Assembly: GCA_028287765.1 (NCBI GenBank)
Contig: JAQBPA010000117.1
Coordinates: 40,483 to 104,482, forward strand
DNA: 64,000 bases
Source of the DNA: Bacteriovoracaceae bacterium
Lineage (GTDB): Bacteria; Bdellovibrionota; UBA2394
Reading direction: 5' to 3'
Part shown: positions 9,355-55,589 of the stretch, one piece after another
Layout of the letters: the number at the start of each line of letters is the position of its first letter
Numbering within the stretch: the first letter of the stretch is position 1
Notes under the pieces: generated by a model
The model's input: only the letters and a program-made list of their open reading frames with translations
Told to the model about the DNA's origin: nothing
Database searches by the model: none
Program-made: the position numbers and the translations under genes

Positions 9355-9527
9355 CCTTTTTAGTTACCGAGACGGTTTCAATGACGCAAGTTTCGGTTTC
9401 ACTTCTAATCCATTGAATCCATTCGCCTTGCTGCGGGGCTCAAATGGATTCCAGTGAATTTTTTGCGAACGAACCCGATGGATTCTTTGATGCAAGGTTG
9501 TATCAAAAATTCGGGAGCGAAGAGCGT

Positions 9528-12113
9528 ATGAGTTTTAAAATAAACTCCTATATCTCTTCCCTTCACGTTGCCTCCGCGCTGCAAAAAACGCAGAAGGCAA
9601 TCGCTCGCTCTCTTGAGAGGCTCTCGACCGCACAGGCCGTCAACTCGCCTCGAGATGATGCTCATGCCTATAGTCTCGGTGTCGGACTTACTTCGCAAAT
9701 TCGTGGTCTTGCGCAAGTGAATACGGGTGTGAACACGGCTCTTGGAATGGTCGACACTGCTAGTTCTGCTGTTTCCAATCAGATCGATATCGTTCAGCGA
9801 ATGAAAGAGATCGCCCTTCAGTCTTCAAACGGAACTTTAGCAAATACTGATCGTGCGAATCTAAACCTAGAATTCCAAAGTCTTCTTTCGGAATATAACC
9901 GAATTACAGACACCACAAATTTTAATGGAACTAAGCTTCTCGACGGTAGTTTCTCAACTCTTAGTATCCAAACCGGTACTCGAAACGGTGATAGCTATGG
10001 AATTAACATGGGTTCAACTCAAGCGAGCCAGGTTCTTGCCCTCAATACGAAATATACGCCGGTTTCAGCCGATACCAATACACTCACTCTTTCTGCAGGA
10101 AGCGCCATTAACATTGCGCAGACAGGTGCGTTCAGTATCGGCGTAACCGACGGAGCTACAATCAATAGTAATTTTGGATCGGGCGCTTATTTTACTTTGA
10201 GCAGTGCAGACGGAAATAATTATACCGTTTGGTACAATATCGACGGACTCGGTAACGACCCGGGAAATGATTTTGAAACAGAAGTGGATATTAGCTCCTC
10301 CGACGATGCAAATACGGTCGCTTCCAAAACGGCAGACGCTCTCGTGGCCAGTGGATTTACTGCTAGCAGTACAGATTCTAATGTTAGTCTTACGGATCTT
10401 CAGGCAGGAGCAGATTCAATTTCGGATAATGGAACCGCATTTAGTTTTACGACGACCGCCGAAGGACAGGCTGCAGGCAAACTTACGATTTCTGACTCGA
10501 ATGGAAGTTTAAATGATCTGATTTGGTTCAATGTGGATGGAAGAGGCGGCAATCCCGGTATTGGCACAATTGAAGTCGACGTTAATTCAACCGACTCAGC
10601 AACCGCCGTAGCTCAAAAATTAAACCTGACGCTTCTTGCAAATGGATTCAATGTCGCCACGTCCGGCAATCAAGAAACGATCACCTCACCCACGGGTCAT
10701 ATCTATACTGTACAAAATTCGGGAATGGGCACCGGATTTAATATTGCTTACTCCGGTGTGTATCAAGCGAGAACAACCGTTGCCGTCGGAAATTTTCCCT
10801 GGATCAATATTACGACTGCCGATTTAAACGGGGACGGCAAAACGGATCTCGTCACGACAGACCTATCCGATAATACGTTGAGTGTTCTTCTCGGTAATGG
10901 AGATGGAACATTTAAGACGAGAACAACTTTCCGAACAGGAGTTGGCCCGAGCTTCTCGACAGCTATTGATGTGAATGGAGATGGAAAATTAGATATTCTC
11001 ACTCTTGATAGCACTGACGGTACCATCAGTGTCTTTCTTGGAAATGGTAATGGAACCTTTAGTGCCCGAACCACGCTGCGAACAGGAAGCGGACCGGCTT
11101 CGCTTGCCACAGGAGATATTAATGGAGACGGAAAAATCGATATCGTCTCTACCGATTATAATAATGGGACAGTGAGTGTCTTTCTTGGCAATGGAAATGG
11201 AATTTTTGCTGCGAGATCCACTCTTAATTTTGGCACCTCCGGAGCAACTTCAGTTATTTTGACCGATACCAACGGAGACGGAAAGCTCGACGTTGTCGCC
11301 ACCAATCAAGTTGAACATTCGATTAGTGTCGCACTAGGAAATGGAAACGGAACATTTCAGGCACGCACATCTTTTAGTGTCGGAGATATTCCTCCCATGG
11401 TGGCAGCCGGCGACGTGAATGGAGACGGAAAGATTGACCTGGTCGAAGCTGATTTTAATCATCAAACCGTTACTGTCCGACTCGGCAACGGAAATGGAAC
11501 TTTCAAAGCAGGAACCGCGCTCTCTACTGGAGGAAGTCCTCAAACCGTAACGCTGCTTGATATCAATGGAGATGGGAAACTAGATATTTTAAGTCCAAAT
11601 ATTTTGAGCGGTAATATCGATGTATTCTTAGGAAACGGAAATGGAACATTTTCGGGCCCTGCGGTTTTAGCTTCCGGCAGTATTCCCTTTTATGTGACCG
11701 CAGCCGACGTGAATGGTGATGGTATTCCCGATATTATTGGCGGTGATCGTGCAGACGGAACGCTCAGTATTCGCTTAGCCAATTCCATTGCTCCCACTTC
11801 GTTTTCAGTAACCACGCAAGCAAATGCAGAAGCTCTCCTTCAGGTCTTCGATAATGCCATTGCAAATCTTAGCGGCACTCGAGCCAAGCTCGAAGGTCTT
11901 CACAGTCGACTCGATGAAACGGCTGCAAGCAATTTACTTCTGAGCGAAAATTTGCAGGACGCTAAATCGAAAGCAATCGACAGCGACTTCGCTCTTGAAA
12001 CCGCCAACCTCGTCCGAAATCAAATTCTTGAACAGGCGCAAGTTGCGGTTCTCGCACAAGCCAATCTCAGCCAACAACTCGTCCTTAAATTACTCGACTT
12101 TATTAAAATCTAG
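9528..12113 (+). CDS. Giant flagellin (861 aa). The variable region carries two tandem ~75-aa repeats and a seven-blade FG-GAP (Ca-binding beta-propeller) insertion.
   Basis: The ORF-track start at 9444 is probably too early. MSFKINSYISSLHV at 9528 is preceded by GGGAG. The N-terminal 'LGVGLTSQIRGLAQVNTGVNTALGMVDTASSAVSNQIDIVQRMKEIALQSSNGTLANTDRANLNLEFQSLLSEYNRITDTTNFNGTKLLDGSF' is a flagellin N-domain. The C-terminal 'LSGTRAKLEGLHSRLDETAASNLLLSENLQDAKSKAIDSDFALETANLVRNQILEQAQVAVLAQANLSQQLVLKLL' is a flagellin C-domain. The middle holds seven repeats of the form D[LVIT]NGDGK.D[LIV]V...[SV][LF]LGNGNGTF. Confidence 0.8.
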   Translation: MSFKINSYISSLHVASALQKTQKAIARSLERLSTAQAVNSPRDDAHAYSLGVGLTSQIRGLAQVNTGVNTALGMVDTASSAVSNQIDIVQRMKEIALQSSNGTLANTDRANLNLEFQSLLSEYNRITDTTNFNGTKLLDGSFSTLSIQTGTRNGDSYGINMGSTQASQVLALNTKYTPVSADTNTLTLSAGSAINIAQTGAFSIGVTDGATINSNFGSGAYFTLSSADGNNYTVWYNIDGLGNDPGNDFETEVDISSSDDANTVASKTADALVASGFTASSTDSNVSLTDLQAGADSISDNGTAFSFTTTAEGQAAGKLTISDSNGSLNDLIWFNVDGRGGNPGIGTIEVDVNSTDSATAVAQKLNLTLLANGFNVATSGNQETITSPTGHIYTVQNSGMGTGFNIAYSGVYQARTTVAVGNFPWINITTADLNGDGKTDLVTTDLSDNTLSVLLGNGDGTFKTRTTFRTGVGPSFSTAIDVNGDGKLDILTLDSTDGTISVFLGNGNGTFSARTTLRTGSGPASLATGDINGDGKIDIVSTDYNNGTVSVFLGNGNGIFAARSTLNFGTSGATSVILTDTNGDGKLDVVATNQVEHSISVALGNGNGTFQARTSFSVGDIPPMVAAGDVNGDGKIDLVEADFNHQTVTVRLGNGNGTFKAGTALSTGGSPQTVTLLDINGDGKLDILSPNILSGNIDVFLGNGNGTFSGPAVLASGSIPFYVTAADVNGDGIPDIIGGDRADGTLSIRLANSIAPTSFSVTTQANAEALLQVFDNAIANLSGTRAKLEGLHSRLDETAASNLLLSENLQDAKSKAIDSDFALETANLVRNQILEQAQVAVLAQANLSQQLVLKLLDFIKI

Positions 12114-13327
12114 CCGGTTTTTCTGAAGGCACGAGTCACGCGCGAGACAATTTGAGCGTCCTCATCATAAATTCTTACTTCGATGCGCTCGATTTGTGTT
12201 TTTCTGAGGTCATCAGGAATTTCTTGGAGATAAGTGATACTGCGAGTCTTATCGATGGGTAGGGTTGAATCGGTCATTATAAAATGGCCGTTAAAAATAT
12301 TTCGGCCGCCAAAAAAGGTGATTCGATATCGAACGACAAAATATTTGCAAGTTCGACTCATTAAATACTGAAGAGCAATTTTAATTTGGCCTTCGGCATT
12401 CAGCGCTGATCCAAGTTCATAGCCAACAAGATTAAAATAATTGGGCTTAGTCTCTTGATCTTCTTTCGAATAATTATTCCAAATGGGAACAGCATTCGGA
12501 ATGAGATAGCCAAGCTCTCCTTCAAGGTCGGCTATTCTCAGCCTTCGGGCTCTCACCTCCGGTGAGTCGCCCTTAAGAAAAGCGGCTTGGCCTACTTTAA
12601 TGGCTGCTTGTGCAATCGCTTCATCCGCTTGTTTAAATTTTTTATCTTTAAATAATGGTTCAACTTTTTTTAAAGTCTCATCGGCGTCATCAAGAAAAGT
12701 ATAAAACCGTGCTTCTTTTAATTTAGGCTGTAACTTGGCTGTCTGCTCTTTAACGTCATCAAAATGTAAGATTTCGACAGAATGAAGTTCGAGTTGTGTT
12801 TTATCGAATTCATTTTTTGCTTCACGATAACGCTTCTCCGCGAGTAAATGCTCCCCCTGTGCAAAAAAGAATTTGGCGTTATCGACTCTTCGCTTCGATT
12901 CAATTTTACTGAGGGCGAGATTGGCCGTAGAAATTTGGCCTTCAAAACTTCGAATGGTGTAAAAGACACTTTCACTCTCTTTTAAAAGTTGGTTTTGTAA
13001 CAGACCATTTCCAACGCGATTGAGCACTTCAAGATACTCATCGACTTTCACACGATCGGATCGCTTGGGTTCCGGAAGATACTCAAGATTTTTATAAGCG
13101 GCTAAATAATGTTCCAATTTTAAATTTTGATAAATTCGCGTCATCGCCGACCGGAATCGATCTTCATAATCTCGCTCAGCTTCAAGTCGCGCTTCAGCTT
13201 CCGCATCTCGCTCAACTTGTTCAAAGTGCGCTTTTAAAAAAAAAGTCGTGACTACTCCAAAAAGAATAAACGAACTTCCGCCAATCACGGCCAAGCGAAA
13301 CCATTTCTTCTCAAAAATCTGACTCAT
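12110..13327 (-). CDS. Hypothetical membrane-anchored protein with an N-terminal TM segment and a coiled-coil region. No recognisable domain.
   Basis: The 405-aa ORF has the N-terminal segment 'WFRLAVIGGSSFILFGVVTTFFL'. Its stop overlaps the flagellin stop convergently. Confidence 0.4.
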   Translation of the reverse strand: MSQIFEKKWFRLAVIGGSSFILFGVVTTFFLKAHFEQVERDAEAEARLEAERDYEDRFRSAMTRIYQNLKLEHYLAAYKNLEYLPEPKRSDRVKVDEYLEVLNRVGNGLLQNQLLKESESVFYTIRSFEGQISTANLALSKIESKRRVDNAKFFFAQGEHLLAEKRYREAKNEFDKTQLELHSVEILHFDDVKEQTAKLQPKLKEARFYTFLDDADETLKKVEPLFKDKKFKQADEAIAQAAIKVGQAAFLKGDSPEVRARRLRIADLEGELGYLIPNAVPIWNNYSKEDQETKPNYFNLVGYELGSALNAEGQIKIALQYLMSRTCKYFVVRYRITFFGGRNIFNGHFIMTDSTLPIDKTRSITYLQEIPDDLRKTQIERIEVRIYDEDAQIVSRVTRAFRKTG

Positions 13328-13449: not shown

Positions 13450-14568
13450 TTAAAACCATTTCCTTTGTTTTAGAGCTTCCGAGAAGGGGGCTTTGAATGT
13501 ATTTATTTTACGAATAATTTCGGGGTCGCGCTTCAGAATTTCTTTTGCTGCCTTATCGATCTCAGTTTGGAAAATTTGTTTTGGCATTTCCATCCAATGA
13601 ATAGCTTCCTCGAATTCTGACAGAGGATCCGCAAAATGAACTCGTAGTTCAAAATGATTAATGTCTTCTCGATCGTAAAGATCATCTTTATAGATATGCA
13701 AGATTTGCCAACTTAACCAAAGATAAAGGTCGTTAACGGGGACTTCTGGATGAGAATGAATAATTTTTAAAAGCCAATAATGAAAAAGAGTTCGTAGACG
13801 ATATTCAAATTCCGGACGATTTAGATCTGGAAACCCATGGAACCCCATATGGAGATGATAGCCGACATCAAACTCACTTTTCACATATAACCGATTCTCA
13901 TTGAGCAGATTTTGACCCAACATTTGAGAAAACGCGCCGAATAATAAAAGAGGGCGCGTCACTCCTCGTACTTCTTTTCGCACACGAAATTCCATCCGGA
14001 ATCTATCAATTCCGGCAACCAAGTCCTGAAAGAAATAAGGAAGACTATTTTTTTTTGGAAGAGAGATTACCTGACGGTCGCCACCCCTCATTTCGTGTCC
14101 TTGAACAAATAAATGACTACGCACCGTAATAGGCAATTGCTCAACATCCACTGACAAAGCTCGTCGCAGGGGGACTAATTTATTCCATACCTCCCGACTC
14201 ATAGGCTTCACCAATAGAGGAAACCATGCATCGTAGTTGTCAGCATTAGAAAATTCATTTTCGTATTCCGGCCACAGTTCAAAAAGATTGAGCCAAACTT
14301 CATCTTTTTCGTTTTGAGGCAGCCCTTTCCAATAATTAGAAAAATCGAAACTCTCGAAGATGGGGTCAAGCGCAAACGGCACAGCTTCAGCATCGAAACT
14401 CAACCACACTTTATTTTCGTATTTCTCAGAAAGCCTTTTAATTCGAGAGATAATAGAATCGGAAAGCTTAAGAATAAATTTAGAACAGTCCACTTCAGAC
14501 TCAGCAGAAGCCGAAACTGCCCACAATATAATGACCAAAATAAAACTAAAGCTCTTAGCCCCGCGCAT
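13450..14568 (-). CDS. Hypothetical secreted protein
   Basis: The signal peptide is 'MRGAKSFSFILVIILWAVSASAESE'. The ORF is 372 aa with no recognisable motif. Confidence 0.4.
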   Translation of the reverse strand: MRGAKSFSFILVIILWAVSASAESEVDCSKFILKLSDSIISRIKRLSEKYENKVWLSFDAEAVPFALDPIFESFDFSNYWKGLPQNEKDEVWLNLFELWPEYENEFSNADNYDAWFPLLVKPMSREVWNKLVPLRRALSVDVEQLPITVRSHLFVQGHEMRGGDRQVISLPKKNSLPYFFQDLVAGIDRFRMEFRVRKEVRGVTRPLLLFGAFSQMLGQNLLNENRLYVKSEFDVGYHLHMGFHGFPDLNRPEFEYRLRTLFHYWLLKIIHSHPEVPVNDLYLWLSWQILHIYKDDLYDREDINHFELRVHFADPLSEFEEAIHWMEMPKQIFQTEIDKAAKEILKRDPEIIRKINTFKAPFSEALKQRKWF

Positions 14569-14623: not shown

Positions 14624-14653
14624 AGGGGTCAGACCCCTCATCTTTTTTCTTTT
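14624..14653 (+). terminator. Intrinsic-terminator-like hairpin on the + strand with no annotated + gene upstream
   Basis: AGGGG-TCAGA-CCCCT is followed by CATCTTTTTTCTTTTC. Confidence 0.35.
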
Positions 14654-14700: not shown

Positions 14701-14917
14701 TCGGCCGGACGGTAATCGAACTGAGGACGAGCGTGGAGCGGGTCGTGGGTGAAAAACTCTTGAGCCGCGCGAGAAAGTCAAACGAGAGATGAACTTCCCG
14801 CGGCGAAAAAGCAACACTCATACTAAGTTCTGTAATTAAAGATTTACCACTGAGCGCGTTTTCTCACCCACGACCCGCTCCACGCTCGCCCGAAAATTCG
14901 ACTACCGTCCGGCCGAC
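14701..14917. repeat. GC-rich element bounded by ~57-bp imperfect inverted repeats. It may be a MITE-like element or a long structured RNA/regulatory palindrome.
   Basis: Region 14701-14757, TCGGCCGGACGGTAATCGAACTGAGGACGAGCGTGGAGCGGGTCGTGGGTGAAAAAC, is nearly the reverse complement of 14860-14917. The 29-bp core CGAGCGTGGAGCGGGTCGTGGGTGA and the 14-bp tip TCGGCCGGACGGTA are perfect. The element sits in the divergent intergenic region upstream of the Topo VI operon, and its local GC is far above surrounding DNA. Confidence 0.6.
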
Positions 14918-15011
14918 CCTGGTCCCCAAGATTTTTAGTTAAGTTTTTTTAAAAAACTTATCCTGCCCGGAAGGGCTTGCAGAAGACGACTCTTCTTGTT
15001 TAACTGCTTTT

Positions 15012-16772
15012 ATGGGCAAACGAAAAGTCGTTCAAAAAGAAGTACTTACAGAGGAAAAGACCAGCGTGAAAGAAAAAGGAAAGGCTCTTAAGGTAGCTCC
15101 TGAGCCACGAATGAAAGCACATAAAAAGAAAGGCCCGGCGGAAAACGCAGAGTCTCTTGCAAAGAAGCAGAGAGAGATTTCTGTCTCCGAATTTTTTGCA
15201 AAGAATCGCCATCTTCTTGGTTTCGATAATCCTAAGAAGGCATTGCTTACTGCAGTTAAAGAAGCGATCGATAATAGTTTGGATGCTTGCGAAGAGTCGG
15301 AGATTCTTCCAGAAATTACTGTTAAACTCGTTCGGCTTTCGGCCAAAGTTGTTGAGCCGACACCCGAAGAAGAGGCTGCACTTGCAAAAGGTGGAAAGCC
15401 GAAGAAGAAAAATCCTACGCCTACCGAAAAATATTGTCTGACTGTGATCGATAATGGTCCTGGGATTGTTCCGGCTCAAATTCCTAAGATTTTTGCAAAA
15501 CTTCTTTATGGATCTAAATTTCACCGTCTTAAGATGTCTCGAGGTCAGCAAGGAATTGGAATTGCGGCGGCGGGAATGTACGGACAAATGACCACCGGAA
15601 AGCCGATGCGTGTTTATTCTAAACTTCCCAAAAATCCAAAGGCGACTTTTGTTGAGCTGCAAATCGATACAAAAACCAATAAGCCGGATGTTCTTCAAGA
15701 AAAAGAAGTGGCGTGGACCGAGAAAACAAGTTCCGGAACGATTGTCGAAATTACGCTCGAAGGACGATATCAACGCGGACGCCAATCCATTGATGAATTT
15801 GTTTTGCTGAATACACTCAGTAATCCGCATGCATCTTTTAAATTCGTCGATCCCGATGGCGAGATTTTTGATTATCCTCGAAAAATTGAGGAGCTTCCAC
15901 CACTCCCCTCCGAAATTAAGCCGCATCCATACGGCGTAGAGCTCGGGCGCTTTCATCAAATGGTCGCGGATACTTCTCAAAAGACCATGAGACAATTCTT
16001 AACGAAAGAATTTTCTCGGGTTTCAGATAAGGTGGTCGATGAAATTTTTAAAGAGGCCGGGGTAAAAGATTTTTCTCTCGCTTCAGCACAGTCCGATAAA
16101 GTGACGAGCGTTCATGAAGCTATTAAAAAAGTGCCGATCATGAATCCTCCGACCGATTGTATCGTTCCGATTGGTGAAGAACTTCTCACCGAGACACTTC
16201 GAAACCAAACGAAGGCCGAATTTTATACAGCGATCACTCGTCCACCTTCGGTTTATCGTGGAAATCCTTTCGTCGTTGAATGCGCACTCGCTTTTGGTGG
16301 AGAACTTCGAGGCGATGAAGCTATGACCGTCTTTCGTTTTGCCAATCGTGTGCCGCTTCAATTTCAACCGGCGGCTTGTGCGACTCTGCGAGTGATCACC
16401 AAAGCCGATTGGAAAAATTACGGGCTCAATCAGCAAAAAAATTCTCTTCCTGTAGGCCCTGTGGCGGTTGTGATTCATGTCGCTTCGGTTTGGGTTCCGT
16501 TTACGTCTGAAAGCAAAGAAGCGATCGCTGATTACCCAGAAATTAAACAAGAAATTAGATTAGCTGTGCTCGAATGTGCGCGCCGATTAAGTGTTCATGT
16601 TTCGCGTGGGAGAAGAGCGGATGAGGCTGAACGAAAAGCTAATTATATAGATACGTATATTCCCTTTATCGGAGAAGCTCTTCAAGCGATGCTTACTCTG
16701 TCTGACAAAGAACGAGATAAAGTCGTTGCAACTCTCCGAGATACTTTAGAGAAAGGAAAACTCGATGGCTAA
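15012..16772 (+). CDS. top6B: Type IIB DNA topoisomerase VI subunit B (GHKL ATPase)
   Basis: Bergerat-fold motifs are present: the N-box 'LLTAVKEAIDNSLDACEE', G1 'VIDNGPGI' and G2 'GQQGIGIAAAGMYG', plus a transducer-like C-terminus. The ORF is 586 aa. Confidence 0.85.
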   Translation: MGKRKVVQKEVLTEEKTSVKEKGKALKVAPEPRMKAHKKKGPAENAESLAKKQREISVSEFFAKNRHLLGFDNPKKALLTAVKEAIDNSLDACEESEILPEITVKLVRLSAKVVEPTPEEEAALAKGGKPKKKNPTPTEKYCLTVIDNGPGIVPAQIPKIFAKLLYGSKFHRLKMSRGQQGIGIAAAGMYGQMTTGKPMRVYSKLPKNPKATFVELQIDTKTNKPDVLQEKEVAWTEKTSSGTIVEITLEGRYQRGRQSIDEFVLLNTLSNPHASFKFVDPDGEIFDYPRKIEELPPLPSEIKPHPYGVELGRFHQMVADTSQKTMRQFLTKEFSRVSDKVVDEIFKEAGVKDFSLASAQSDKVTSVHEAIKKVPIMNPPTDCIVPIGEELLTETLRNQTKAEFYTAITRPPSVYRGNPFVVECALAFGGELRGDEAMTVFRFANRVPLQFQPAACATLRVITKADWKNYGLNQQKNSLPVGPVAVVIHVASVWVPFTSESKEAIADYPEIKQEIRLAVLECARRLSVHVSRGRRADEAERKANYIDTYIPFIGEALQAMLTLSDKERDKVVATLRDTLEKGKLDG

Positions 16773-17865
16773 AAAAGATATGGCCGACAATAAAGCCGCA
16801 GTCGGTATTCATAAGACGGCAAAAGAAATTTATGACAAGGCTTTGAAAGGCCAAAAGCCGCAACTTAAAATGCCCATTCGCTCGCTCGGAAACGTCACGT
16901 ATAAAAAAGAGGGTTATTTAAGTTTATCGAATCAATATAAAACTCGAACGCTCACTTATAATACGGTGAAGGGTTTTGCGCAGACTCTCAAAATGATGTC
17001 GGCTTCCAAAGAGCTGATCGATACAGACGATCATGCTTCAAAGCGGGAAATGTATTATATTTCCAAAAACTGGGGACCTGCGCGCTTCGATGAACAGCCC
17101 GAGAGTGACACGGTGATGGATGATATCGAAGCCATGATGTGTGTGAACCGAGAGCAGCTGCGATTTCTTCCGGAAGAAAAAGGTGGCGAAGTGGCGGGTC
17201 AGCTCATTGTGATGGACAGAGATCGCGATACAGCGAAGCCGATTAAGATTGATTGCACTGGTTTTGGATCAGGCGCTTATTCCATTCCGAGTTCGGTTGA
17301 GCATTTAGGATTTCAAACCAAAGCGAAATTTATTTTGTGTATCGAAACCGCCGGTATGTTCCAGCGGCTTGTGGCTCACAACTACTGGCGAAAAGCGAAC
17401 TGCATTTTGATTTCGATGGGAGGAGTTCCCACTCGCGCGACCCGAAGATTTGTTCGAAGACTCGCCGACAGTATTAAAATTCCCGTTTACACATTCGTCG
17501 ACGGCGATCCTTACGGTGTCGCAAATATTTATCGAACCTTGAAAGTCGGATCCGGAAATGCGGCGCATATTAACGAATTCTTTTGTGTACCGACGGCAAC
17601 TTTTATGGGCATCACTCCTCAAGATGTGAATGATTATAAACTGCCGACACACCCGCTAAAAGAAGTGGATATTAAGCGAGCTAAAGATGCGCTTAAGAAC
17701 GACCCTTTTTTTAAATTCCATAAACCCTGGGTGGCGGCAATTGAAGCGATGATCAAATCCGGAGTTCGTGCAGAACAGCAAGCTCTCGCAAAACACGGAC
17801 TCAATTATGTGATGGATGTTTATTTGCCGGAAAAGCTAAAAAAAGCAGATAAATTTTTGCCCTGA
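16765..17865 (+). CDS. top6A: Type IIB DNA topoisomerase VI subunit A (Spo11/Top6A, winged-helix plus Toprim)
   Basis: Toprim acidic motifs 'ILCIETAGMF' (E) and 'YTFVDGDPYG' (DxD) are present, along with the Spo11-like 'REMYYISKNW' region. The start overlaps the top6B stop (ATGGCTAA), and the ORF is 366 aa. Confidence 0.85.
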   Translation: MAKKDMADNKAAVGIHKTAKEIYDKALKGQKPQLKMPIRSLGNVTYKKEGYLSLSNQYKTRTLTYNTVKGFAQTLKMMSASKELIDTDDHASKREMYYISKNWGPARFDEQPESDTVMDDIEAMMCVNREQLRFLPEEKGGEVAGQLIVMDRDRDTAKPIKIDCTGFGSGAYSIPSSVEHLGFQTKAKFILCIETAGMFQRLVAHNYWRKANCILISMGGVPTRATRRFVRRLADSIKIPVYTFVDGDPYGVANIYRTLKVGSGNAAHINEFFCVPTATFMGITPQDVNDYKLPTHPLKEVDIKRAKDALKNDPFFKFHKPWVAAIEAMIKSGVRAEQQALAKHGLNYVMDVYLPEKLKKADKFLP

Positions 17866-17958: not shown

Positions 17959-18648
17959 ATGCTCGCATTGGCCATTTCGATCGCCCTTATTTCACATGCT
18001 CCGCCTCGCTGCGATCCTCCGGGTCCCGCTCAAGAAATGTTGACTGCGATGCGAGCGGCCGAAGAACAAAATCGAAAATCTGGAATCTATCATGTTCGCG
18101 TGACGGGAATGGTTACGATTGGAAATGATATAGTCGCCCTTGAAATTGCGCCTCAAGAATTTCCAGGCCAAAAATGGCTCGGAGAAATAGAAAAAGGAAA
18201 GACAAACGGAATGGGCCTCATGCTCGAGAGCGTGTCGCCGGCAACGGGTTCCGCAAAGCTAAAAGGATTGGATGGTCGAACTGTTGAATTATTTGTCGGC
18301 AGAAAAGGAAGCGATATTCCGCTCAAGTTCGGAGCATCGGCAGATGGCTCTCGTCTTTCGTCAGTATTATTGGACAGACAGGCTTCGAGAGACCAAATGA
18401 TTAAAGATTTTGATCCCATAATCCCCCCGAGCGTCCCCGACTTTATTAGAAGCGGAAAACTTGTTAGGGACTTGCTCGAATCGCTCGAGAATGAGGCCAA
18501 AATTACGCCACTGTCGGATGAGGATTTTCGATCTCTGCTTCACTCCATGGGACAGATAAATTTTTTCGATCTAAACAACGAAGTGCTCAGTGAGGAGCAG
18601 ATAAAGAAGAATTTAGTGACTTACCTACATTCCCAGGGTCACAGATGA
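17959..18648 (+). CDS. Hypothetical protein, possibly exported
   Basis: The 229-aa ORF has a hydrophobic N-terminus 'MLALAISIALISHA' and no recognisable domain. Confidence 0.35.
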   Translation: MLALAISIALISHAPPRCDPPGPAQEMLTAMRAAEEQNRKSGIYHVRVTGMVTIGNDIVALEIAPQEFPGQKWLGEIEKGKTNGMGLMLESVSPATGSAKLKGLDGRTVELFVGRKGSDIPLKFGASADGSRLSSVLLDRQASRDQMIKDFDPIIPPSVPDFIRSGKLVRDLLESLENEAKITPLSDEDFRSLLHSMGQINFFDLNNEVLSEEQIKKNLVTYLHSQGHR

Positions 18649-18831: not shown

Positions 18832-20058
18832 ATGAAAAAGATCATTTCGGCAGTTATTTTAATTTCCAGTTCACTCACAACGAATGTTTCAGCGCTTGAG
18901 GCATTAAAAGCCTCGGTGAATCAGAGCTATCTTGAAGAATTGAGAAAAACTTTTTTCGACAACGAAACGAAATTAGCCGAATTTGCTTCGGTAATCAAAA
19001 AGGCTCAGGACGCGAAAGTTAAAGTTACGGATGAGTTGATGCAAGCCCTCTTTACTCCTTTTAATACTTCAGCAGCGCAGGCACTGAGAAATAAATACGG
19101 ACTTACCGTCAATTTTCATTCTGCGGTTTCTGAGTATGAGAAAGCAGACTTTTACTCCACTTTACTTTTGGAAACGGCAAATATCGAAAAGCTAAATCGA
19201 ACGGGAAAAAAGCTTGATCTCAATATTACTTATTATCGAGATCAAAATCGCACAGAAAAACTTTCAAAATTATTTTCTAAAGAAGTCGCTGATCATTATA
19301 AATTGGCAAGTGAAGATGCAAATGTGGGAGGAAGAGCGCGGGCTTTTGACCTTTCAATAATGAACGCTGAACCAATAGCACAGATTCTACAAATACCTTC
19401 TGCTACCTACCCGACCCTCGAACTTATCGATAAAGAGAGTTCCTCAACGATTAAAAAGGATTGGGCTAATGGAACGATAATTACCGCAAAGGTCGGAGAG
19501 GAATCGATCACTGAGAAGGGGCAAGACTATTATTTGAAGCAAGTGCAAGAAGGAAACGTTTTCGCCAGAATTCAAACTGGGCAATATTTCCAATATATCC
19601 CAGTAAAAGAAGATGAAAATTTTAAATCATTTAAAAATACGATCAAAACTATAGGTGGCAGCGTAAAAGTTATACGAGGCCAGGTCCGCAATTTTTCTAA
19701 TGACGGTTTTGCACTCGCCTCCTTAACCATTCCAAAAGTAGCACTAGATCTCGATAAGACAAAAGCACCCATGGCCATCTTGAGCGATAATGTTTGGCTC
19801 TCCGGAGAGGCAGCTTTTAATCAAGATCACGTAAAAGAGTATTTTATCTCCAACCCGAGCGATGCCGTTGCAGCGATTGTTGCCACAGATGCAAAGTTAA
19901 AAATGGCGATTGCAGAAAAGGAAGTTCGCGAGGTGGCTGCTAATCAGAAAAAGATCGATGCGGATAAGAAAGATGCTCTCGATGGTCTTTTAAAGTCGTT
20001 AAAGGGACCCTCCACAAATTGTCCTCCAAAAGCACCTGTTTCCGCAGCGCACCGCTAA
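18832..20058 (+). CDS. Hypothetical secreted protein
   Basis: The signal peptide is 'MKKIISAVILISSSLTTNVSALEA'. The ORF is 408 aa. Confidence 0.4.
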   Translation: MKKIISAVILISSSLTTNVSALEALKASVNQSYLEELRKTFFDNETKLAEFASVIKKAQDAKVKVTDELMQALFTPFNTSAAQALRNKYGLTVNFHSAVSEYEKADFYSTLLLETANIEKLNRTGKKLDLNITYYRDQNRTEKLSKLFSKEVADHYKLASEDANVGGRARAFDLSIMNAEPIAQILQIPSATYPTLELIDKESSSTIKKDWANGTIITAKVGEESITEKGQDYYLKQVQEGNVFARIQTGQYFQYIPVKEDENFKSFKNTIKTIGGSVKVIRGQVRNFSNDGFALASLTIPKVALDLDKTKAPMAILSDNVWLSGEAAFNQDHVKEYFISNPSDAVAAIVATDAKLKMAIAEKEVREVAANQKKIDADKKDALDGLLKSLKGPSTNCPPKAPVSAAHR

Positions 20059-25737: not shown

Positions 25738-25747
25738 AAAAATAAAA

Positions 25748-26258
25748 AAAGGTAAAGGCTATAAGCCGGGTTCTGTTCCTAAAGGTTTTTAACGCCTTTA
25801 AGTAATGACCATCAATCTGGGAGAGTTGTTACCAACTCCCTCAAGCAACCGACCTTCGTTTCTGACTACTCTCTTGCCAACCGCGGAGCAGTCACAGTGG
25901 GGAGCTTCCCACCCATAGGCTCACACCTACAAAAACGATTCTTGGTCTTGCACCCCATAGGGTTTAGCGCGATTACAGTCACCTGCAAAAGCCGTGAGCT
26001 CTTACCTCACGTTTTCAACCTTACCTGATCTTCTTTCGAAGCCATCGGCGGTGTATTTTCTGTGCCACTTTCCGTATTTCGCTAAGCTTGCAGATCTTAC
26101 GACCCACTTACCCGACGAAACCCAGGCCGTTAGCCTGTATGGTAGCTCAAGTCTGACTCACTTTTTCTGTTGAAGAAGTCTATCAAACTAGGTGCCCGGA
26201 CTTTCCTCTATTCAAAAATTTTTACGTCTCTGAACAGCGATCATCCACCTTTACCTTT
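25748..26258 (-). ncRNA. rnpB: RNase P RNA (bacterial type A)
   Basis: The minus strand reads AGGAAAGUCCGGGCAC (P4 5' strand, template 26191-26210), ACCGCCGAUGGCUUCGAAAGAAGAUCAGGUAAGGUUGAAAACGUGAGGUAAGAGCUCACGGC (the conserved P10-P12 core) and ACAGAACCCGGCUUAU (P4 3' strand, template 25761-25780). The P1 pairing GGUAAAGG/CCUUUACC is followed by a U-rich tail. The region is ORF-free and GC-richer than its surroundings. It appears longer than E. coli M1 RNA, with expansions in P5-P9 and the 3' domain. Confidence 0.8.
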
Positions 26259-42723: not shown

Positions 42724-43845
42724 ATGAAAGAACGCATTTTGATCACCGGAGGAGCTGGATTTATCGGCTCGCATCTCGCGAAAAAACTTACGGCGTCTGG
42801 CTACTCTGTCCGAGTTTTAGATCTGTTCACACCTCAAGTTCACGGAAACGACGGCTTTCAAAAATCTCTACCATCCTTCAGTCGAGATATAGAAGTGATG
42901 CATGGTGATGTGAGATCTCCAAAAGATATTCGCTCGGCACTTCATCATATGGATGTGGTCTATCATTTAGCGGCTTCCGTCGGTGTCGGTCAGAGCATGT
43001 ACGAAGTGCATTCCTATACAAGCCACAATAATTTAGGAACCGCCAACCTTCTTCAGCAGTTGATTGCTCGCCCCATTCAAAAATTGATTGTGGCTTCCAG
43101 TATGAGCCTCTACGGAGAAGGAAGTTATGTGAGTTCGGATGGAAAAATTCACCATTCGATCCGTCGAAATTTTGCGGAAGTTAAACAGAGAAAATGGGAG
43201 CCTCAATTAGAAGATGGTGAGCCATTAGTTCCCATCATGACGCCGGAATCTAAAGCACCCGACCTATCCTCCATTTATGCTCTTTCAAAATACGACCAAG
43301 AGCGAATGTGTCATACCATTGGCCAAGCTTATAACATTCCAACCGTTTCGCTCCGATTTTTTAATGTTTACGGTCGCGGACAATCTCTTTCGAATCCTTA
43401 CACCGGCGTTATGGCCATTTTTGCTTCGCGACTTCTGAATGGAAGTACACCCACCATTTTTGAGGACGGAAATCAAATGCGAGATTTCGTCCATGTCTCC
43501 GATGTAGTTGAGGCTTGCCAGCTGGCTCTCGAAATTCCCGAAGCGGCCGGAGAAGTTTTTAATATCGGAAGCGGCTCGCACTTTCGAATTCAAGAAATTG
43601 CTCGAGCCATGGCCAAAATGATCGGTGTTTCTCTCGAGCCCGAAATTACAGAGCACTACCGCGTGGGCGATATCCGCCACTGTTTTGCGGACATCTCGAA
43701 AGCAAAGCGCCTGCTTGGCTACAGGCCAAAAGTAAATTTAACAGAAGGACTAGCTGATTTAACTCAGTGGCTCGCGGAACAAACCGCGATCGATCATACA
43801 AAAAGAGCGAGGCACGAACTCTATTCTCGAGGGTTAGCCCTATGA
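42724..43845 (+). CDS. NAD-dependent epimerase/dehydratase (extended SDR, nucleotide-sugar modifying)
   Basis: The Rossmann motif is 'ILITGGAGFIGSHLAKKL' and the YxxxK motif is 'YALSKYDQE'. Confidence 0.8.
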   Translation: MKERILITGGAGFIGSHLAKKLTASGYSVRVLDLFTPQVHGNDGFQKSLPSFSRDIEVMHGDVRSPKDIRSALHHMDVVYHLAASVGVGQSMYEVHSYTSHNNLGTANLLQQLIARPIQKLIVASSMSLYGEGSYVSSDGKIHHSIRRNFAEVKQRKWEPQLEDGEPLVPIMTPESKAPDLSSIYALSKYDQERMCHTIGQAYNIPTVSLRFFNVYGRGQSLSNPYTGVMAIFASRLLNGSTPTIFEDGNQMRDFVHVSDVVEACQLALEIPEAAGEVFNIGSGSHFRIQEIARAMAKMIGVSLEPEITEHYRVGDIRHCFADISKAKRLLGYRPKVNLTEGLADLTQWLAEQTAIDHTKRARHELYSRGLAL

Positions 43846-44909
43846 CACCTTACACACTCATCACCGGAGGCGCGGGATTCATCGGAACCAATCTTGCCGA
43901 TCGACTCGCCTCCTCCGGTGAAAATGTTTTAATTCTCGACAATCTTTCTCGGCAAGGCGTGAAGGCCAATTTGATTTGGCTGCTTCAGAATCATCAAAAA
44001 AAAATTAAGTTTGTTCAAAGGGATATACGTAGTTCGGAACGTCTGGATGAATTAGTGAGTGATGCAAGTAGTGTCTTTCATCTCGCTGCACAGGTGGCGG
44101 TCACTTCCAGTCTCTCTGACCCCATCACGGATTTTGAGATCAATACTTACGGCACACTTCGCTTACTTGAAGCACTTCGAAAATTAAAAAATCCGCCCCC
44201 TCTCATCTATACATCCACCAATAAAGTTTATGGCAATTTAAATGACGTCACACTGCAAGAAACCAAAACAAGATATGAACCCATCGAGAGTGAAATCAAA
44301 AATTACGGAATTGATGAATCAAGAAGATTAGAATTCAGCAGTCCTTATGGTTGTTCTAAGGGCGCTGCCGATCAGTACGTTCTTGATTATTCGAAAACTT
44401 TCGGAATGCCGGCCGTCGTCTTTCGAATGAGCTGTATCTATGGTCCTCATCAATGGGGAAATGAGGATCAAGGATGGATTGCCCATTTTGTAAAACAGAT
44501 GCTCGAAGAAACTCCCCTTACACTTTATGGCAATGGCAAACAGGTTCGCGACACACTTTTCATTGATGATCTGATTGATGCTTTTTTATTAGTGAGAGAG
44601 CAAATTCAAGAACTGAAAACTCAGGCCTTTAATATCGGCGGCGGCCCACAAAATACGACGAGCCTTCTTGAACTTCTCCGGCTTCTTTCAGAAAAAAGCC
44701 AGCACCCCATTGATCTTCGCTACGAAAACTGGAGAACTTCAGATCAGCGTTATTATGTTTCGGACGTTCGTAAATTCATGAGCTCGACTGGATGGTTCCC
44801 TCGGGTAAATCTCGATGAAGGCATAAATCACCTCATTCATTGGATGGGTGATCTAAAAAATATAAAACCTCAAAAAGATTCTCAACAAATTTACGAGGCA
44901 TTCGCTTAA
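43842..44909 (+). CDS. NAD-dependent epimerase/dehydratase (extended SDR)
   Basis: The likely start is MTPYTLITGGAGFIGTNL, an ATGA overlap with the upstream gene, rather than the track start at 43767. The catalytic motif is 'YGCSKGAADQY'. Confidence 0.8.
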   Translation: MTPYTLITGGAGFIGTNLADRLASSGENVLILDNLSRQGVKANLIWLLQNHQKKIKFVQRDIRSSERLDELVSDASSVFHLAAQVAVTSSLSDPITDFEINTYGTLRLLEALRKLKNPPPLIYTSTNKVYGNLNDVTLQETKTRYEPIESEIKNYGIDESRRLEFSSPYGCSKGAADQYVLDYSKTFGMPAVVFRMSCIYGPHQWGNEDQGWIAHFVKQMLEETPLTLYGNGKQVRDTLFIDDLIDAFLLVREQIQELKTQAFNIGGGPQNTTSLLELLRLLSEKSQHPIDLRYENWRTSDQRYYVSDVRKFMSSTGWFPRVNLDEGINHLIHWMGDLKNIKPQKDSQQIYEAFA

Positions 44910-44911
44910 TT

Positions 44912-46039
44912 ATGGAACAAAACATTCGACGTATTCTGATGACAGCGGATATTTTTGGAGGCGTTTGGACGTATACACTCGATCTTGCCAGGGAATTTCA
45001 AAAATTAAATATTCATGTCGGAATCGCAGCTCTAGGAGGAACCCTCGATCGAGAACAACGGCGAGAAGTTTTTTCGATTCCCGATATTGACGTATTCGAA
45101 AGCCGATTTCCGCTTGAATGGATGAATGAGCCATGGTCCGCGCTCGAAGCAGGCAGAGAATGGATTTCTAAACTCGAAGAAAATTTTGCTCCCGATATTA
45201 TTCACCTAAATAGCTTCTGTCATCGCCCCGTAGATCCTGGCTGCCTGCAAGTTATCGTGGCGCACTCTGATGTATTTTCCTGGTACAGCGCCGTTTTGAA
45301 CAAAAAGCCGCCGCCAAAGTGGAATCGTTATTACGAAGAAGTTCAAAAAAGTCTGAATGCTGTGGATCTCGTCATTGCTCCAAGTAAGGCGGCTCTTCGT
45401 GATCTCGAAAATCAATTCGGCCCGCTTCCAAATGAAAAACTTTCTATTCCAAATGGATGCCGCGAAATTGAAGAAATAAATGTGTTGAAAAAAAATAGAA
45501 TTTTAAGTGTAGGTAGACTTTGGGACGAAGCGAAAAATATTTCGGCTCTCGACAAAATAGCTGAACAAATTCCTTGGCCGATTCTTGTGGCCGGAAGTGC
45601 TGAGAGCCCGATGGGTGAGGAGGTGATCCTAAATCATGTTTTTCAACTCGGGCATCTTCCTAAAGATCAACTCCACTATGAATTAGCTCGCGCCAGCATT
45701 TATGTTGCGCCAGCAAAATATGAACCTTTTGGTTTAGGAATTCTTGAGGCTGCACTGAATGGTTGTGCACTGGTCTTGGGAGATATACCAAGCCTTAGAG
45801 AAAATTGGGATGGTGCTTGTGTCTTTGTAGATTCAAATCGTCCTGAAGAAATAAAACATGCACTTCTCGATTTCATTTCAGATCCTGCGAAAAGAAAAAA
45901 GTTTGCTTCGCTCTCTCAATCACGTGCTCAAGAGTTTACGAGCAAAAAAATGGCGGGGAGTTACCTGGATGCTTACGGTTCCCTTCTTAAGAAGTACGGG
46001 CGAGCGTCCGTCTCTCGGGAGGCTGCGTGCGCGTTTTAA
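44912..46039 (+). CDS. Glycosyltransferase family 4 (GT-B, group 1)
   Basis: The C-terminal motif is 'EPFGLGILEAALNGCALVLGDIPSLRE'. Confidence 0.75.
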   Translation: MEQNIRRILMTADIFGGVWTYTLDLAREFQKLNIHVGIAALGGTLDREQRREVFSIPDIDVFESRFPLEWMNEPWSALEAGREWISKLEENFAPDIIHLNSFCHRPVDPGCLQVIVAHSDVFSWYSAVLNKKPPPKWNRYYEEVQKSLNAVDLVIAPSKAALRDLENQFGPLPNEKLSIPNGCREIEEINVLKKNRILSVGRLWDEAKNISALDKIAEQIPWPILVAGSAESPMGEEVILNHVFQLGHLPKDQLHYELARASIYVAPAKYEPFGLGILEAALNGCALVLGDIPSLRENWDGACVFVDSNRPEEIKHALLDFISDPAKRKKFASLSQSRAQEFTSKKMAGSYLDAYGSLLKKYGRASVSREAACAF

Positions 46040-47139
46040 TGTTCTATCATTCACTCGTCTCGGATTGGAACCACGGCAACGCTCATTTTTTAAGGGGAAT
46101 TGCGAGTGAGCTGATCTCTCGTGGCCACGCGGTCTGTATCTACGAACCAGAAAATTCTTGGAGTCGACAAAATCTGATCGAGCGTGAGGGTCAGAGTTCT
46201 ATTGAGGCGTTTCATTCGAGTTATCCTTTTTTAAGGTCAACGGTTTACGATATTGACTCCTTTGATTTTGATACAGCTCTCGACGGAGCGGATCTCGTGC
46301 TCGTTCACGAATGGAATTCTCCCGAGCTCATTCAAAAATTGGGAGATCTACGTTCTGAAAGAAATGATTTTGTACTTTTTTTTCATGACACTCATCACAG
46401 ACTCTCGATGACGCCCTTTGAAATGGCCGGCGTCATCCTTCGAAACTATGACGGAGTACTTGCCTTCGGAAAAGTCATCTCCGATTTTTACCGTGATCGA
46501 CAGAATATCGAGAATGTTTGGACTTGGCATGAGGCCGCTGACACACGAATTTTTTATCCAAGGAAATCGGAAACCACTGGCGATCTCGTTTGGATTGGAA
46601 ACTGGGGAGACGGTGAACGAACTCAAGAATTAGAAAACTTTCTCTTTAAGCCGATAGAATATTTAGGACTCGAAGCTTCCATCTACGGCGTTCGATACCC
46701 AGAGGAAGCAAAAAAGCGACTGGCAGAAGCAAATATCTTTTATGGCGGCTGGATTGCAAATTACCGGGCGCCCGAAATTTATTCGCAATATTTATTCACG
46801 GTTCATATTCCGCGCCGTCATTATGTAGAAAGTCTTCCTGGCATTCCGACGATTCGAGTTTTTGAAGCCCTCGCGTGTGGAATTCCTCTTCTCTCCACTT
46901 TTTGGGAAGATGAAGAAGAACTTTTTACGGCCGGAAAAGATTTTTTAATCGCCAAAAATGAATTTGAAGTTCGAAAATGGATGAAAGCTCTTTCGAATGA
47001 ACCAGCTTTAAGAGCGGAGCTTTCTACCCACGGGCGACAAACTATTTTAAAAAGACATACATGTCGACATCGAGTGGATGAGCTCCTCTATATATATCAT
47101 TCGTATAAGTCGAGGGAGGTTCGATGCATCCCCGCCTAA
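46027..47139 (+). CDS. CgeB-like glycosyltransferase (DUF3880 + Glyco_trans_1_2-like), paralog 1
   Basis: The N-terminal motif is 'FYHSLVSDWNHGNAHFLRGIASEL' and the C-terminal motif is 'RVFEALACGIPLLS'. Confidence 0.55.
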   Translation: MRVLMFYHSLVSDWNHGNAHFLRGIASELISRGHAVCIYEPENSWSRQNLIEREGQSSIEAFHSSYPFLRSTVYDIDSFDFDTALDGADLVLVHEWNSPELIQKLGDLRSERNDFVLFFHDTHHRLSMTPFEMAGVILRNYDGVLAFGKVISDFYRDRQNIENVWTWHEAADTRIFYPRKSETTGDLVWIGNWGDGERTQELENFLFKPIEYLGLEASIYGVRYPEEAKKRLAEANIFYGGWIANYRAPEIYSQYLFTVHIPRRHYVESLPGIPTIRVFEALACGIPLLSTFWEDEEELFTAGKDFLIAKNEFEVRKWMKALSNEPALRAELSTHGRQTILKRHTCRHRVDELLYIYHSYKSREVRCIPA

Positions 47140-55450: not shown

Positions 55451-55589
55451 TAAAAGTTGATACGTGACGGGGATCAGTCAAGCCTCCAGCTTTCGTCAAC
55501 TTATAACCTTAGTCTGGCGACCTTGGAACGATGTTAAGTCTTTTTAAATCGAGGAAGGCTTCATCACTGTAATAAAGCTGGAGATTTTT

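Follow-up and report, generated by a model that had tools for sequence, protein, structure and literature searches.

The two adjacent genes described here very probably encode a canonical type IIB topoisomerase, Topo VI, that is resident on the chromosome and vertically inherited within an uncultured clade of Bacteriovoracaceae-like Bdellovibrionota. Topo VI, which is characteristic of archaea and plants, untangles DNA. Both genes lie on the plus strand of the window (the whole 64-kb stretch of DNA that was analysed), top6B at 15012-16772 (586 aa) and top6A at 16765-17865 (366 aa), and they code for separate B and A subunits, an arrangement also found in relatives. The sequence comes from the metagenome-assembled genome (MAG) of an uncultured member of the Bacteriovoracaceae (Bdellovibrionota), and because the window contains, according to Rfam, an RNase P RNA of class A (25746-26256), the host is bacterial. 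NCBI already holds the top6B product (MDB5037654.1, 100% identical) and the top6A product (MDB5037655.1). A first-pass annotation of this DNA had proposed a bacterial Topo VI B+A operon with full-length subunits and intact catalytic motifs; the operon is borne out by Pfam, NCBIfam (for B), PDB, fold and motif comparisons, and the catalytic residues, all present in both subunits, are invariant when each is aligned with 15 homologs. The identification as Topo VI rests on profile, sequence and fold comparison.

In Top6B, a GHKL/Bergerat ATPase domain is followed by an H2TH domain and then by a transducer, with a stalk helix at the C-terminus; an Ig-like C-terminal domain is lacking. The protein matches PF09239 (transducer, 3e-58) and HATPase_c in Pfam, exceeds the cut-offs of two NCBIfam equivalogs (NF003218, 647.3 bits for a cut-off of 274; TIGR01052, 499.4 bits for a cut-off of 380.7) and finds Methanosarcina mazei Top6B in the PDB (2q2e_B, 4e-131). 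With an AF2 model of only moderate confidence (pLDDT 70), the best 16 Foldseek matches are all Topo VI-B, with E down to 1e-44. Coverage is nearly complete: positions 5-506 of the 539 in the equivalog profile are spanned, Foldseek alignments to Topo VI-B structures run over 490-535 columns, and an unbroken alignment to residues 76-506 of M. mazei Top6B takes in the H2TH domain. In the 16-sequence alignment, the N-box reads K83-E84-A-I-D87-N88-S-L-D-A with its catalytic residues invariant, the G1 box D147-N-G149-P-G151-I (D147, G149 and G151 invariant) and the G2 box S176-R-G178-Q-Q-G181-I-G183 (G178, G181 and G183 invariant). The switch lysine is K502, within an invariant SESK motif, and the stalk carries a WKxY motif, W467-K468-N469-Y470, in which W467 and Y470 are invariant; the DNA-sensing residues are conserved as well, all these motifs being defined as in PMC7671362 and PMC5922973. 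Two stretches stand out from this conserved frame: residues 1-45 form a Lys-rich tail predicted to be disordered, and a charged insertion of ~30 aa, acidic then basic, lies at residues ~110-140, after the N-box and before the G1 box. Only the closest clade (at least 66% identity) shares this insertion, which is missing from the other bacterial Top6B proteins in the alignment, another Bdellovibrionota Top6B (P0174) being among those that lack it.

Top6A has a 5Y-CAP/winged-helix domain, complete with the N-terminal part that binds B, together with all-beta and Toprim domains. All three Pfam models for these domains pass (PF04406, PF20768 and PF21180, the last being Toprim at 5e-59), and the protein is 54% identical over 303 aa to the Methanocaldococcus jannaschii subunit in the PDB (1d3y, 3e-107), so that its strongest archaeal PDB match is from the Methanococcales, in keeping with the placement of a bacterial Topo VI cluster near that order (PMC11302465). 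Six subfamily-specific NCBIfam equivalogs all score below their cut-offs, the best being NF003337 (460.9 bits for a cut-off of 675). The catalytic RxxYY motif is R94-E-M-Y97-Y98, with R94 and Y98 aligned to R99 and Y103 of M. jannaschii and invariant among homologs; the Toprim ligands E194 and D246-G-D248, likewise invariant, correspond to E197, D249 and D251. The T2BI box, R335-A-E337-Q-Q-A340 with R335 and E337 invariant, is of the Topo VI type, (R/K)xExx(A/S), as defined in PMC7671362. [quoted passage not shown]

By homology to the M. mazei and Saccharolobus shibatae enzymes, the subunits would assemble as an A2B2 heterotetramer in which the Top6A dimer binds a G-segment duplex and cuts both strands through Y98, assisted by R94 and by Mg2+ held by E194, D246 and D248. 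Binding of ATP by the GHKL domains of Top6B (E84, N88, G1 and G2) would cause dimerisation and capture of the T-segment, for which the R255-G-R257 loop, the W467-K-x-Y470 stalk motif and the H2TH domain may act as sensors. Through the transducer, ATP hydrolysis would then be coupled by the switch lysine K502 to DNA-gate opening and strand passage. Residue conservation thus points to an A2B2 enzyme with ATP- and Mg2+-dependent strand passage and 2-nt staggered breaks, whose expected activities would be the decatenation of replicated chromosomes and the relaxation of supercoils.

The two genes are also tightly organized for expression. The first-pass annotation had noted that they overlap, and the overlap between the top6B stop and the top6A start, read directly, is the 8-nt ATGGCTAA at 16765-16772 (plus strand); in 10 of 12 clade relatives the B/A junction likewise is an overlap of 8-14 nt or a gap of at most 16 nt. 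Within the 3' end of top6B, 7 nt before the top6A ATG, a Shine-Dalgarno-like GAAAGGA (16751-16757, plus strand) may serve top6A, and a GAAAGGA/AAGGAG-like element occupies the same place in most clade relatives. Translation of B and A may be coupled through the overlap, from which equimolar B and A would be expected. Upstream, a promoter-like element at 14977-15004 (plus strand) abuts the start of top6B, 7 nt from its ATG, and consists of TTGCAG (14977-14982), a 16-nt spacer and TTTAAC (14999-15004); a generic sigma-70 scan did not call it. In 10 of the 12 clade loci a TTGC stands 35-38 nt upstream of the top6B ATG, with an A/T-rich hexamer ~16 nt further on; the remainder of this intergenic region does not align among relatives. 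Both genes would be transcribed from this promoter abutting the top6B start codon. The sequence before top6B contains no Shine-Dalgarno, and the top6B mRNA is probably leaderless or nearly so.

The operon, set among housekeeping genes, is shared by ~13 related species-level MAGs in a conserved chromosomal order: uvrD, orf405, top6B, top6A, MFS and oppA. Between relatives, dN values of 0.07-0.23 go with saturated dS, and every computable dN/dS lies below 0.1; as dS is saturated in most comparisons, the point values were left unused and only a qualitative conclusion is drawn, namely that top6B and top6A appear to be under strong purifying selection and functionally maintained. Because of this selection and of the synteny across ~13 MAGs, we consider the operon an old resident of the clade rather than a recent mobile-element import. 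Its composition agrees with the host-like, AT-rich codon usage claimed earlier: GC is 0.445 and 0.447 for the two genes and 0.434 for the window, and GC3 (0.36 and 0.45) falls inside the range of neighbouring genes (0.355-0.452). No mobile-element genes flank the operon within the window; in one relative, IS transposase genes are found downstream of top6A.

The immediate surroundings in this genome are more idiosyncratic. The GC-rich inverted repeat that had been pointed out upstream of the operon is real: it spans 216 nt at 14701-14916 (no strand assigned; GC 0.546), upstream of the inferred promoter, with arms of ~56 nt (14701-14756 and 14860-14916) around a 103-nt centre, and as RNA it folds at -122 kcal/mol (z = -10.6). 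It is absent upstream of top6B in relatives and belongs to no Rfam family. The 24-nt core of its arm has no second copy in the window and no exact match in GTDB species-representative genomes or JGI metagenome contigs, an 18-nt core gives only single chance matches from which similarity does not extend, and no target-site duplication is seen; a MITE was rejected on these grounds. One short-read contig (L001) ends exactly at the right arm, which we do not count as evidence for multiple copies because an inverted repeat alone explains such a break. The description of unknown secreted proteins beside the operon also holds: inspected by eye, the N-termini of the ORFs at 13450-14568 (minus strand), 17959-18648 and 18832-20058 resemble signal peptides, and the four flanking orphan ORFs have no match in Pfam, NCBIfam, PHROGs or PADLOC. 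The gene at 13450-14568 was rejected as a conserved partner, not being homologous to the upstream gene of relatives, which corresponds to orf405 of the window (12110-13327). The inverted repeat and the secreted-like orphans are lineage-specific insertions that adjoin the operon, not components of it, and a mobile or defence island was rejected given that the orphans have no matches and the core synteny is conserved.

Could the enzyme nevertheless be something other than a resident, working Topo VI? Its A subunit might be a defence Toprim nuclease of the JetD or MksG kind. Wadjet JetD/MksG is a Toprim nuclease that lacks the catalytic Tyr and lies beside JetABC or MksBEF, and JetD shares the Toprim fold of Topo VI-A, in keeping with the weak, partial Toprim match to JetD that PADLOC reports for Top6A (30 bits, E = 7e-8). 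The protein, however, reaches 199 bits with the Top6A Toprim model and only 30 with JetD, it retains the catalytic Tyr and has a 5Y-CAP domain, and the upstream partner is Top6B, itself free of PADLOC matches, rather than JetABC or MksBEF; no SMC-like or kleisin genes adjoin the operon among the annotated neighbours. Domain content therefore effectively refutes this reading, to which we give almost no credence. Equally negligible is an integrated-plasmid or prophage origin, as a Topo VIII, a Mini-A type enzyme or an otherwise recently acquired gene, for which the lineage-specific repeat, the orphan ORFs and the transposase genes of the one relative might speak, as might the existence of bacterial type IIB homologs on mobile elements (PMC7671362). 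Topo VIII and Mini-A belong to the type IIB superfamily with 5Y-CAP and Toprim domains, Topo VIII also with a Bergerat ATPase (PMC7671362), but they are plasmid- or virus-carried, lack the N-terminal 5Y-CAP part and bear RVELNAM or WELDAL (Takahashi et al., 2020, PMC7671362). Here, in contrast to Topo VIII, whose genes sit on plasmids or integrated elements, A has the N-terminal part and its box is RAEQQAL, of the R-x-E-x-x-A form, and where Topo VIII has an extra conserved Arg 3 residues after the catalytic Tyr, K101 follows Y98. Mini-A is a stand-alone, virus-encoded protein of ~300 aa with WELDAL, whereas the present A has 366 aa, no WELDAL and a Top6B gene immediately upstream, whose separate, full-length product scores above equivalog cut-offs. 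Neither subunit groups with these families, which were set apart by the motif tests and by their absence from tblastn results at E <= 1e-3; tblastn found no bacterial plasmid and no phage match for these proteins, and the sole plasmid matches are three Topo VI genes on haloarchaeal megaplasmids, 34-35% identical. With synteny kept across ~13 species, a host-like composition and flanking ORFs devoid of PHROGs matches, a mobile-carried enzyme is effectively refuted as well. Only marginally less improbable is that the genes survive from an ancient archaeal transfer in a decaying or non-functional state: bacterial Topo VI is indeed thought to have come from archaea by horizontal transfer (PMC11302465) and the generic scan called no promoter, but the two ORFs are unbroken, no catalytic residue is missing, dN/dS is low, and the operon architecture and the promoter-like motif are conserved across the clade.

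On balance, the most likely role of Topo VI in this host may be that of a dedicated decatenase beside gyrase in a genome devoid of topo IV, by analogy with other topo VI bacteria, all of which have GyrA and GyrB, while those outside Pseudomonadota and Terrabacteria, including Bdellovibrio bacteriovorus, are without ParC and ParE (PMC11302465). The M. mazei enzyme complements an Escherichia coli parE-ts mutant (unpublished data of the authors of PMC11302465). Some doubt attaches to topo IV being absent from this phylum, because PMC11318664 lists a "Top IV (Bd0005)" for B. bacteriovorus, in conflict with Allen and Maxwell; the 64-kb window itself contains no gyr or par genes. We thus also entertain, as possible though rather unlikely, a genuine but redundant Topo VI in a genome that also has topo IV, with a specialised or auxiliary role such as the relaxation of positive supercoils when replication is rapid, or the resolution of the multiple copies of the chromosome that arise in filamentous intraprey growth. 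Besides that Top IV listing, the clade-conserved adjacency of uvrD/pcrA might suggest a connection with replication or repair, but this adjacency is confined to one closely related clade and can be explained by shared ancestry; set against redundancy, the triple complement is known only from Pseudomonadota and Terrabacteria, and B. bacteriovorus is classed as lacking topo IV (PMC11302465). Histone or IHF-like genes, which accompany Topo VI in some Omnitrophica loci (PMC11390915), are absent from beside the operon among its annotated neighbours. A bolder proposal, which we regard as improbable, is that Topo VI alone would have served as dedicated decatenase ever since an ancient transfer from archaea, topo IV being absent, with the tail and the GHKL insertion as clade-specific DNA-contacting elements. 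If true, the Lys-rich tail and the ~30-aa insertion would adapt regulation, or the capture of the T-segment, to the unusual chromosome biology of a predator. Bdellovibrio-like predators replicate into polyploid filaments and then synchronously segregate many chromosomes.

The weak part of the first-pass interpretation is the novelty it implied. Topo VI had been called only sporadic in bacteria, which understates its distribution: a survey lists 17 bacterial families, including B. bacteriovorus (Allen and Maxwell, 2024, PMC11302465), and we found at least 8000 homologous proteins. Among the best 120 of these at least 8000 matches, every named one is from a bacterial MAG, and many phyla are represented. 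MAGs labelled Bacteriovoracaceae are not among the 17 families because that survey excluded MAGs. Since bacterial Topo VI, including that of this phylum, is already documented, the finding is well verified but ordinary; the gain is modest, a verified, vertically inherited lineage added to a list built without MAGs, together with evidence that a figure of "17 families" greatly understates how widespread Topo VI is among uncultured bacteria. The gyrase and topo IV complement of Topo VI bacteria has already been analysed (PMC11302465), and why some bacteria pair an archaeal-type decatenase with gyrase is a question recognised in the literature, to which this locus adds no new testability. Our literature search turned up neither biochemical nor genetic work on any bacterial Topo VI, and the compact operon with its clade-specific GHKL insertion could be expressed and compared with archaeal enzymes. 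The new points are minor: the charged ATPase-domain insertion, the promoter-like motif at the start codon and the orphan 216-nt inverted repeat.

Among known systems, the operon most resembles the bacterial Topo VI that cluster near the Methanococcales (PMC11302465; for example Bd2864 and that of Pirellula staleyi), with which it shares a chromosomal top6B followed by top6A, all catalytic motifs and a B subunit without an Ig-like C-terminal domain; B. bacteriovorus (Bd2864) and the present host belong to the same phylum, Bdellovibrionota. Its Top6A is 59-71% identical to the A subunits of Planctomycetota, Eisenbacteria, Acidobacteriota and other phyla, whereas Top6B is only ~50% identical to that of other phyla, against ~70% for A, and differs from other bacterial Top6B by the insertion between the N-box and G1. 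The archaeal comparators with solved structures are those of M. mazei (2Q2E and 9O0G), S. shibatae (2ZBK) and M. jannaschii Top6A (1D3Y). Relative to M. mazei, the present B lacks the Ig-like C-terminal domain and its KGRR loop is shortened to RGR, one basic residue fewer; relative to these archaeal enzymes, it adds the Lys-rich 45-aa N-terminal tail and the GHKL insertion, in a host that is bacterial.

The operon is a canonical bacterial Topo VI, as the first-pass annotation had proposed: profile matches, fold matches and residues all bear the claim out, and the two ORFs lie exactly where it placed them, top6B at 15012-16772 (+; 586 aa) and top6A at 16765-17865 (+; 366 aa). The overlap it reported reads as 8 nt, ATGGCTAA at 16765-16772, common to the end of top6B and the start of top6A, with a Shine-Dalgarno-like GAAAGGA 7 nt upstream of the top6A ATG; the same junction shows an overlap of 8-14 nt or a gap of at most 16 nt in 10 of 12 relatives. 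For subunit B, Pfam gives Topo-VIb_trans (3e-58) and HATPase_c; two NCBIfam equivalog models of Topo VI-B score above their curated cut-offs (NF003218, 647 bits against 274; TIGR01052, 499 bits against 381), and a search of solved structures finds M. mazei Top6B at 4e-131. With its AlphaFold2 model (16-sequence input, mean pLDDT 70), the best 16 Foldseek matches are Topo VI-B chains throughout, with E-values down to 1e-44, beyond which scores fall steeply to generic GHKL ATPases. Each of the three Top6A domains in Pfam is found in subunit A: TP6A_N, Topo_VI_alpha and, at 5e-59, TOP6A-Spo11_Toprim. M. jannaschii Top6A is matched at 3e-107, with 54% of residues identical across 303 aa. None of the NCBIfam cut-offs, which are high and subfamily-specific, is reached, the best score being 461 bits where 675 are required.

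Residue conservation was read from alignments of each subunit with 15 other sequences. In B, the N-box (E84, N88), the G1 box (D147, G149, G151), the G2 box (G178, G181, G183) and the switch lysine K502 are invariant, as are R94 and Y98 (M. jannaschii R99 and Y103) and E194, D246 and D248 (M. jannaschii E197, D249 and D251) in A. The WKxY stalk motif and the KGRR loop are essential in M. mazei Top6B (PMC5922973); B has the former as W467-K468-N469-Y470, whereas its loop, R255-G256-R257, has one basic residue fewer than that of M. mazei. B lacks the Ig-like CTD, as is reported of every bacterial Top6B tested (PMC11302465). It starts with a Lys-rich tail (residues 1-45, 12 Lys) that is predicted to be disordered. 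The stretch from the N-box helix to the G1 strand carries an insertion of ~30 aa (~residues 110-140), acidic and then Lys/Pro-rich; within it, residues 118-126 form a short helix in the AlphaFold2 model, at modest confidence. All close relatives (at least 66% identity) share this insertion; it was not found in the other aligned bacterial Top6B, including P0174 from another member of the Bdellovibrionota.

That the window is bacterial follows from a full-length Rfam match to class A bacterial RNase P RNA at 25746-26256 (minus strand, 192 bits), and the host lineage is Bdellovibrionota; Bacteriovoracia. B and A are identical to NCBI MDB5037654.1 (100%) and MDB5037655.1, which share a 123-kb MAG contig and the name 'topoisomerase subunit [Bacteriovoracaceae bacterium]'. 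Thirteen species-representative MAGs, labelled Bacteriovoracaceae, Bdellovibrionota, 'Deltaproteobacteria' or 'Bradymonadales', hold the closest relatives (68-76% identity for B, 81-92% for A); in the next ones, from Planctomycetota, Acidobacteriota, Eisenbacteria, Gemmatimonadetes and other phyla, identity drops to ~50% in B and to 59-71% in A. In three loci from Nitrospirae, Planctomycetia and Fibrobacterota (L033, L038, L041), B is 44-48% identical and A only 33-36%, which is consistent with a second Top6A lineage that bacteria gained in a separate acquisition, or with histories that differ between the subunits. Allen and Maxwell describe two bacterial clusters derived from archaeal transfers, one adjoining Methanococcales (PMC11302465), and the low identity of A in these loci agrees with their second cluster.

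The clade keeps the gene order uvrD/pcrA(-), orf405(-), top6B(+), top6A(+), MFS/Atg22, oppA. Operon GC and GC3 agree with those of neighbouring genes, in line with the host-like codon usage noted at first pass; dN is 0.07-0.23 with dS saturated, dN/dS is below 0.1 where computable, and the operon's flanks in the window contain no integrase, transposase, phage or defence genes. Taken together, synteny, composition, dN/dS and the lack of flanking mobile genes mark the operon as long resident on the chromosomes of this clade and maintained there by selection. In one relative, L003/L006 (CAZRCG010000002.1), the IS-type transposase genes DDE_Tnp_1 and rve lie ~2.5-5 kb downstream of top6A, in the place of the MFS and opp genes of other clade members, which shows local rearrangement beside the operon.

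The window itself has three lineage-specific insertions in this order. Between uvrD and orf405 sits a giant flagellin (9444-12113, +; 889 aa) with Flagellin_N and Flagellin_C ends around a ~600 aa insert of FG-GAP/VCBS-type repeats (PF13517, 2e-63) with weak dockerin-like matches; among relatives, only L009 has a partial homolog. Between orf405 and top6B lie orf372 (13450-14568, -) and an inverted repeat, and between top6A and the MFS gene lie orf229 (17959-18648, +) and orf408 (18832-20058, +). These three orphan ORFs have no match in Pfam, NCBIfam, PHROGs or PADLOC and no homolog among the clade loci fetched; their N-termini look like signal peptides, and the 'unknown secreted proteins' of the first-pass annotation are, like the repeat, lineage-specific insertions. 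The membrane-anchored, coiled-coil-like orf405 (12110-13327, -), which has no family match, is parted from top6B here by orf372 and the repeat; in each clade relative reaching that far (L005-L016), its homolog (30-53% identity) lies next to top6B on the upstream side in divergent orientation, an adjacency that could reflect a functional link or mere shared ancestry. Further away, a probable cluster for surface-polysaccharide biosynthesis occupies 42724-57419, a long same-strand run of ORFs among which are glycosyltransferase, nucleotidyl-transferase and UDP-glucose/GDP-mannose dehydrogenase genes.

The GC-rich inverted repeat claimed upstream of the operon is present at 14701-14916 (216 nt; GC 0.546 against 0.434 in the window), with arms of ~56 nt that are 88% complementary over 57 nt, a 103-nt centre and a folding energy of -122 kcal/mol (z = -10.6). 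It has one copy in the window, none upstream of top6B in any relative, none detected in genome or metagenome collections, no Rfam match and no visible target-site duplication, and it lies upstream of the putative promoter. We regard it as a palindromic insertion specific to this lineage, an orphan without relation to Topo VI function. The short-read contig L001 ends exactly at its right arm. No Shine-Dalgarno sequence precedes top6B; 10 of 12 clade loci share TTGC 35-38 nt ahead of its ATG, and ~16 nt past it comes an A/T-rich hexamer ending 7-10 nt before the ATG, while the remainder of the intergenic region does not align among relatives. In the window these are TTGCAG (14977-14982, +), a putative -35 element, and TTTAAC (14999-15004, +), suggesting a promoter that abuts the top6B start and would yield a leaderless or near-leaderless mRNA, a reading that we only infer because a generic sigma-70 scan made no call on it. 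Between the inverted repeat and the putative -35 element, an AT-rich perfect palindrome, TAAGTTTTTT-T-AAAAAACTTA (14940-14960, 52-72 nt upstream of the ATG), could be an operator-like site; it was not seen in relatives' upstream regions read by eye. A terminator-like hairpin, AGGGGTCAGACCCCT followed by a T-run (14624-14638, +), occupies the divergent intergenic region, with no plus-strand gene upstream of it.

Bacterial Topo VI is already published, the phylum is already represented and GenBank lists both proteins under a generic name; novelty is confined to a clade of MAG-only, Bacteriovoracaceae-like members that conserve synteny, its specific GHKL insertion in B and the inferred leaderless promoter. 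By homology, the subunits would assemble as A2B2 into an ATP- and Mg2+-dependent strand-passage machine, decatenating and relaxing DNA. Across the 17 bacterial families with topo VI, B. bacteriovorus included (Allen and Maxwell 2024, PMC11302465), gyrase is always present and topo IV is lacking other than in Pseudomonadota and Terrabacteria; M. mazei topo VI also complements E. coli parE-ts (Allen and Maxwell, unpublished data; PMC11302465). These reports argue for a dedicated decatenase beside gyrase as the most likely role. A 'Top IV' locus is nevertheless listed for B. bacteriovorus (PMC11318664), and on its account we keep, as a less likely scenario, a genuine topo VI that is redundant alongside topo IV. 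The window holds no gyr or par genes.

For A, a Topo VIII, Mini-A or JetD ALTERNATIVES identity was rejected on plasmid and phage searches, the T2BI box, the 5Y-CAP part and the Top6B partner. JetD and Topo VI-A have the Toprim fold in common, which explains a weak PADLOC match of A to JetD (30 bits); it is outweighed by the presence in A of a catalytic Tyr and a 5Y-CAP domain and by its Top6B partner. The first-pass annotation had asked whether the proteins might belong with Topo VIII or plasmid-borne Mini-A, or lack catalytic residues. They do not: tblastn of A against 72,556 plasmids gave only three matches, all of them topo VI genes on haloarchaeal megaplasmids (34-35% identity), there was no match in 50,697 phage records, and the catalytic residues are invariant. 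The T2BI signature is RVELNAM in Topo VIII and WELDAL in Mini-A (PMC7671362), whereas the box at the C-terminal end of A, R335-A-E337-Q-Q-A340, is neither of these and has the Topo VI form; both families are also without the N-terminal 5Y-CAP part, which A possesses.
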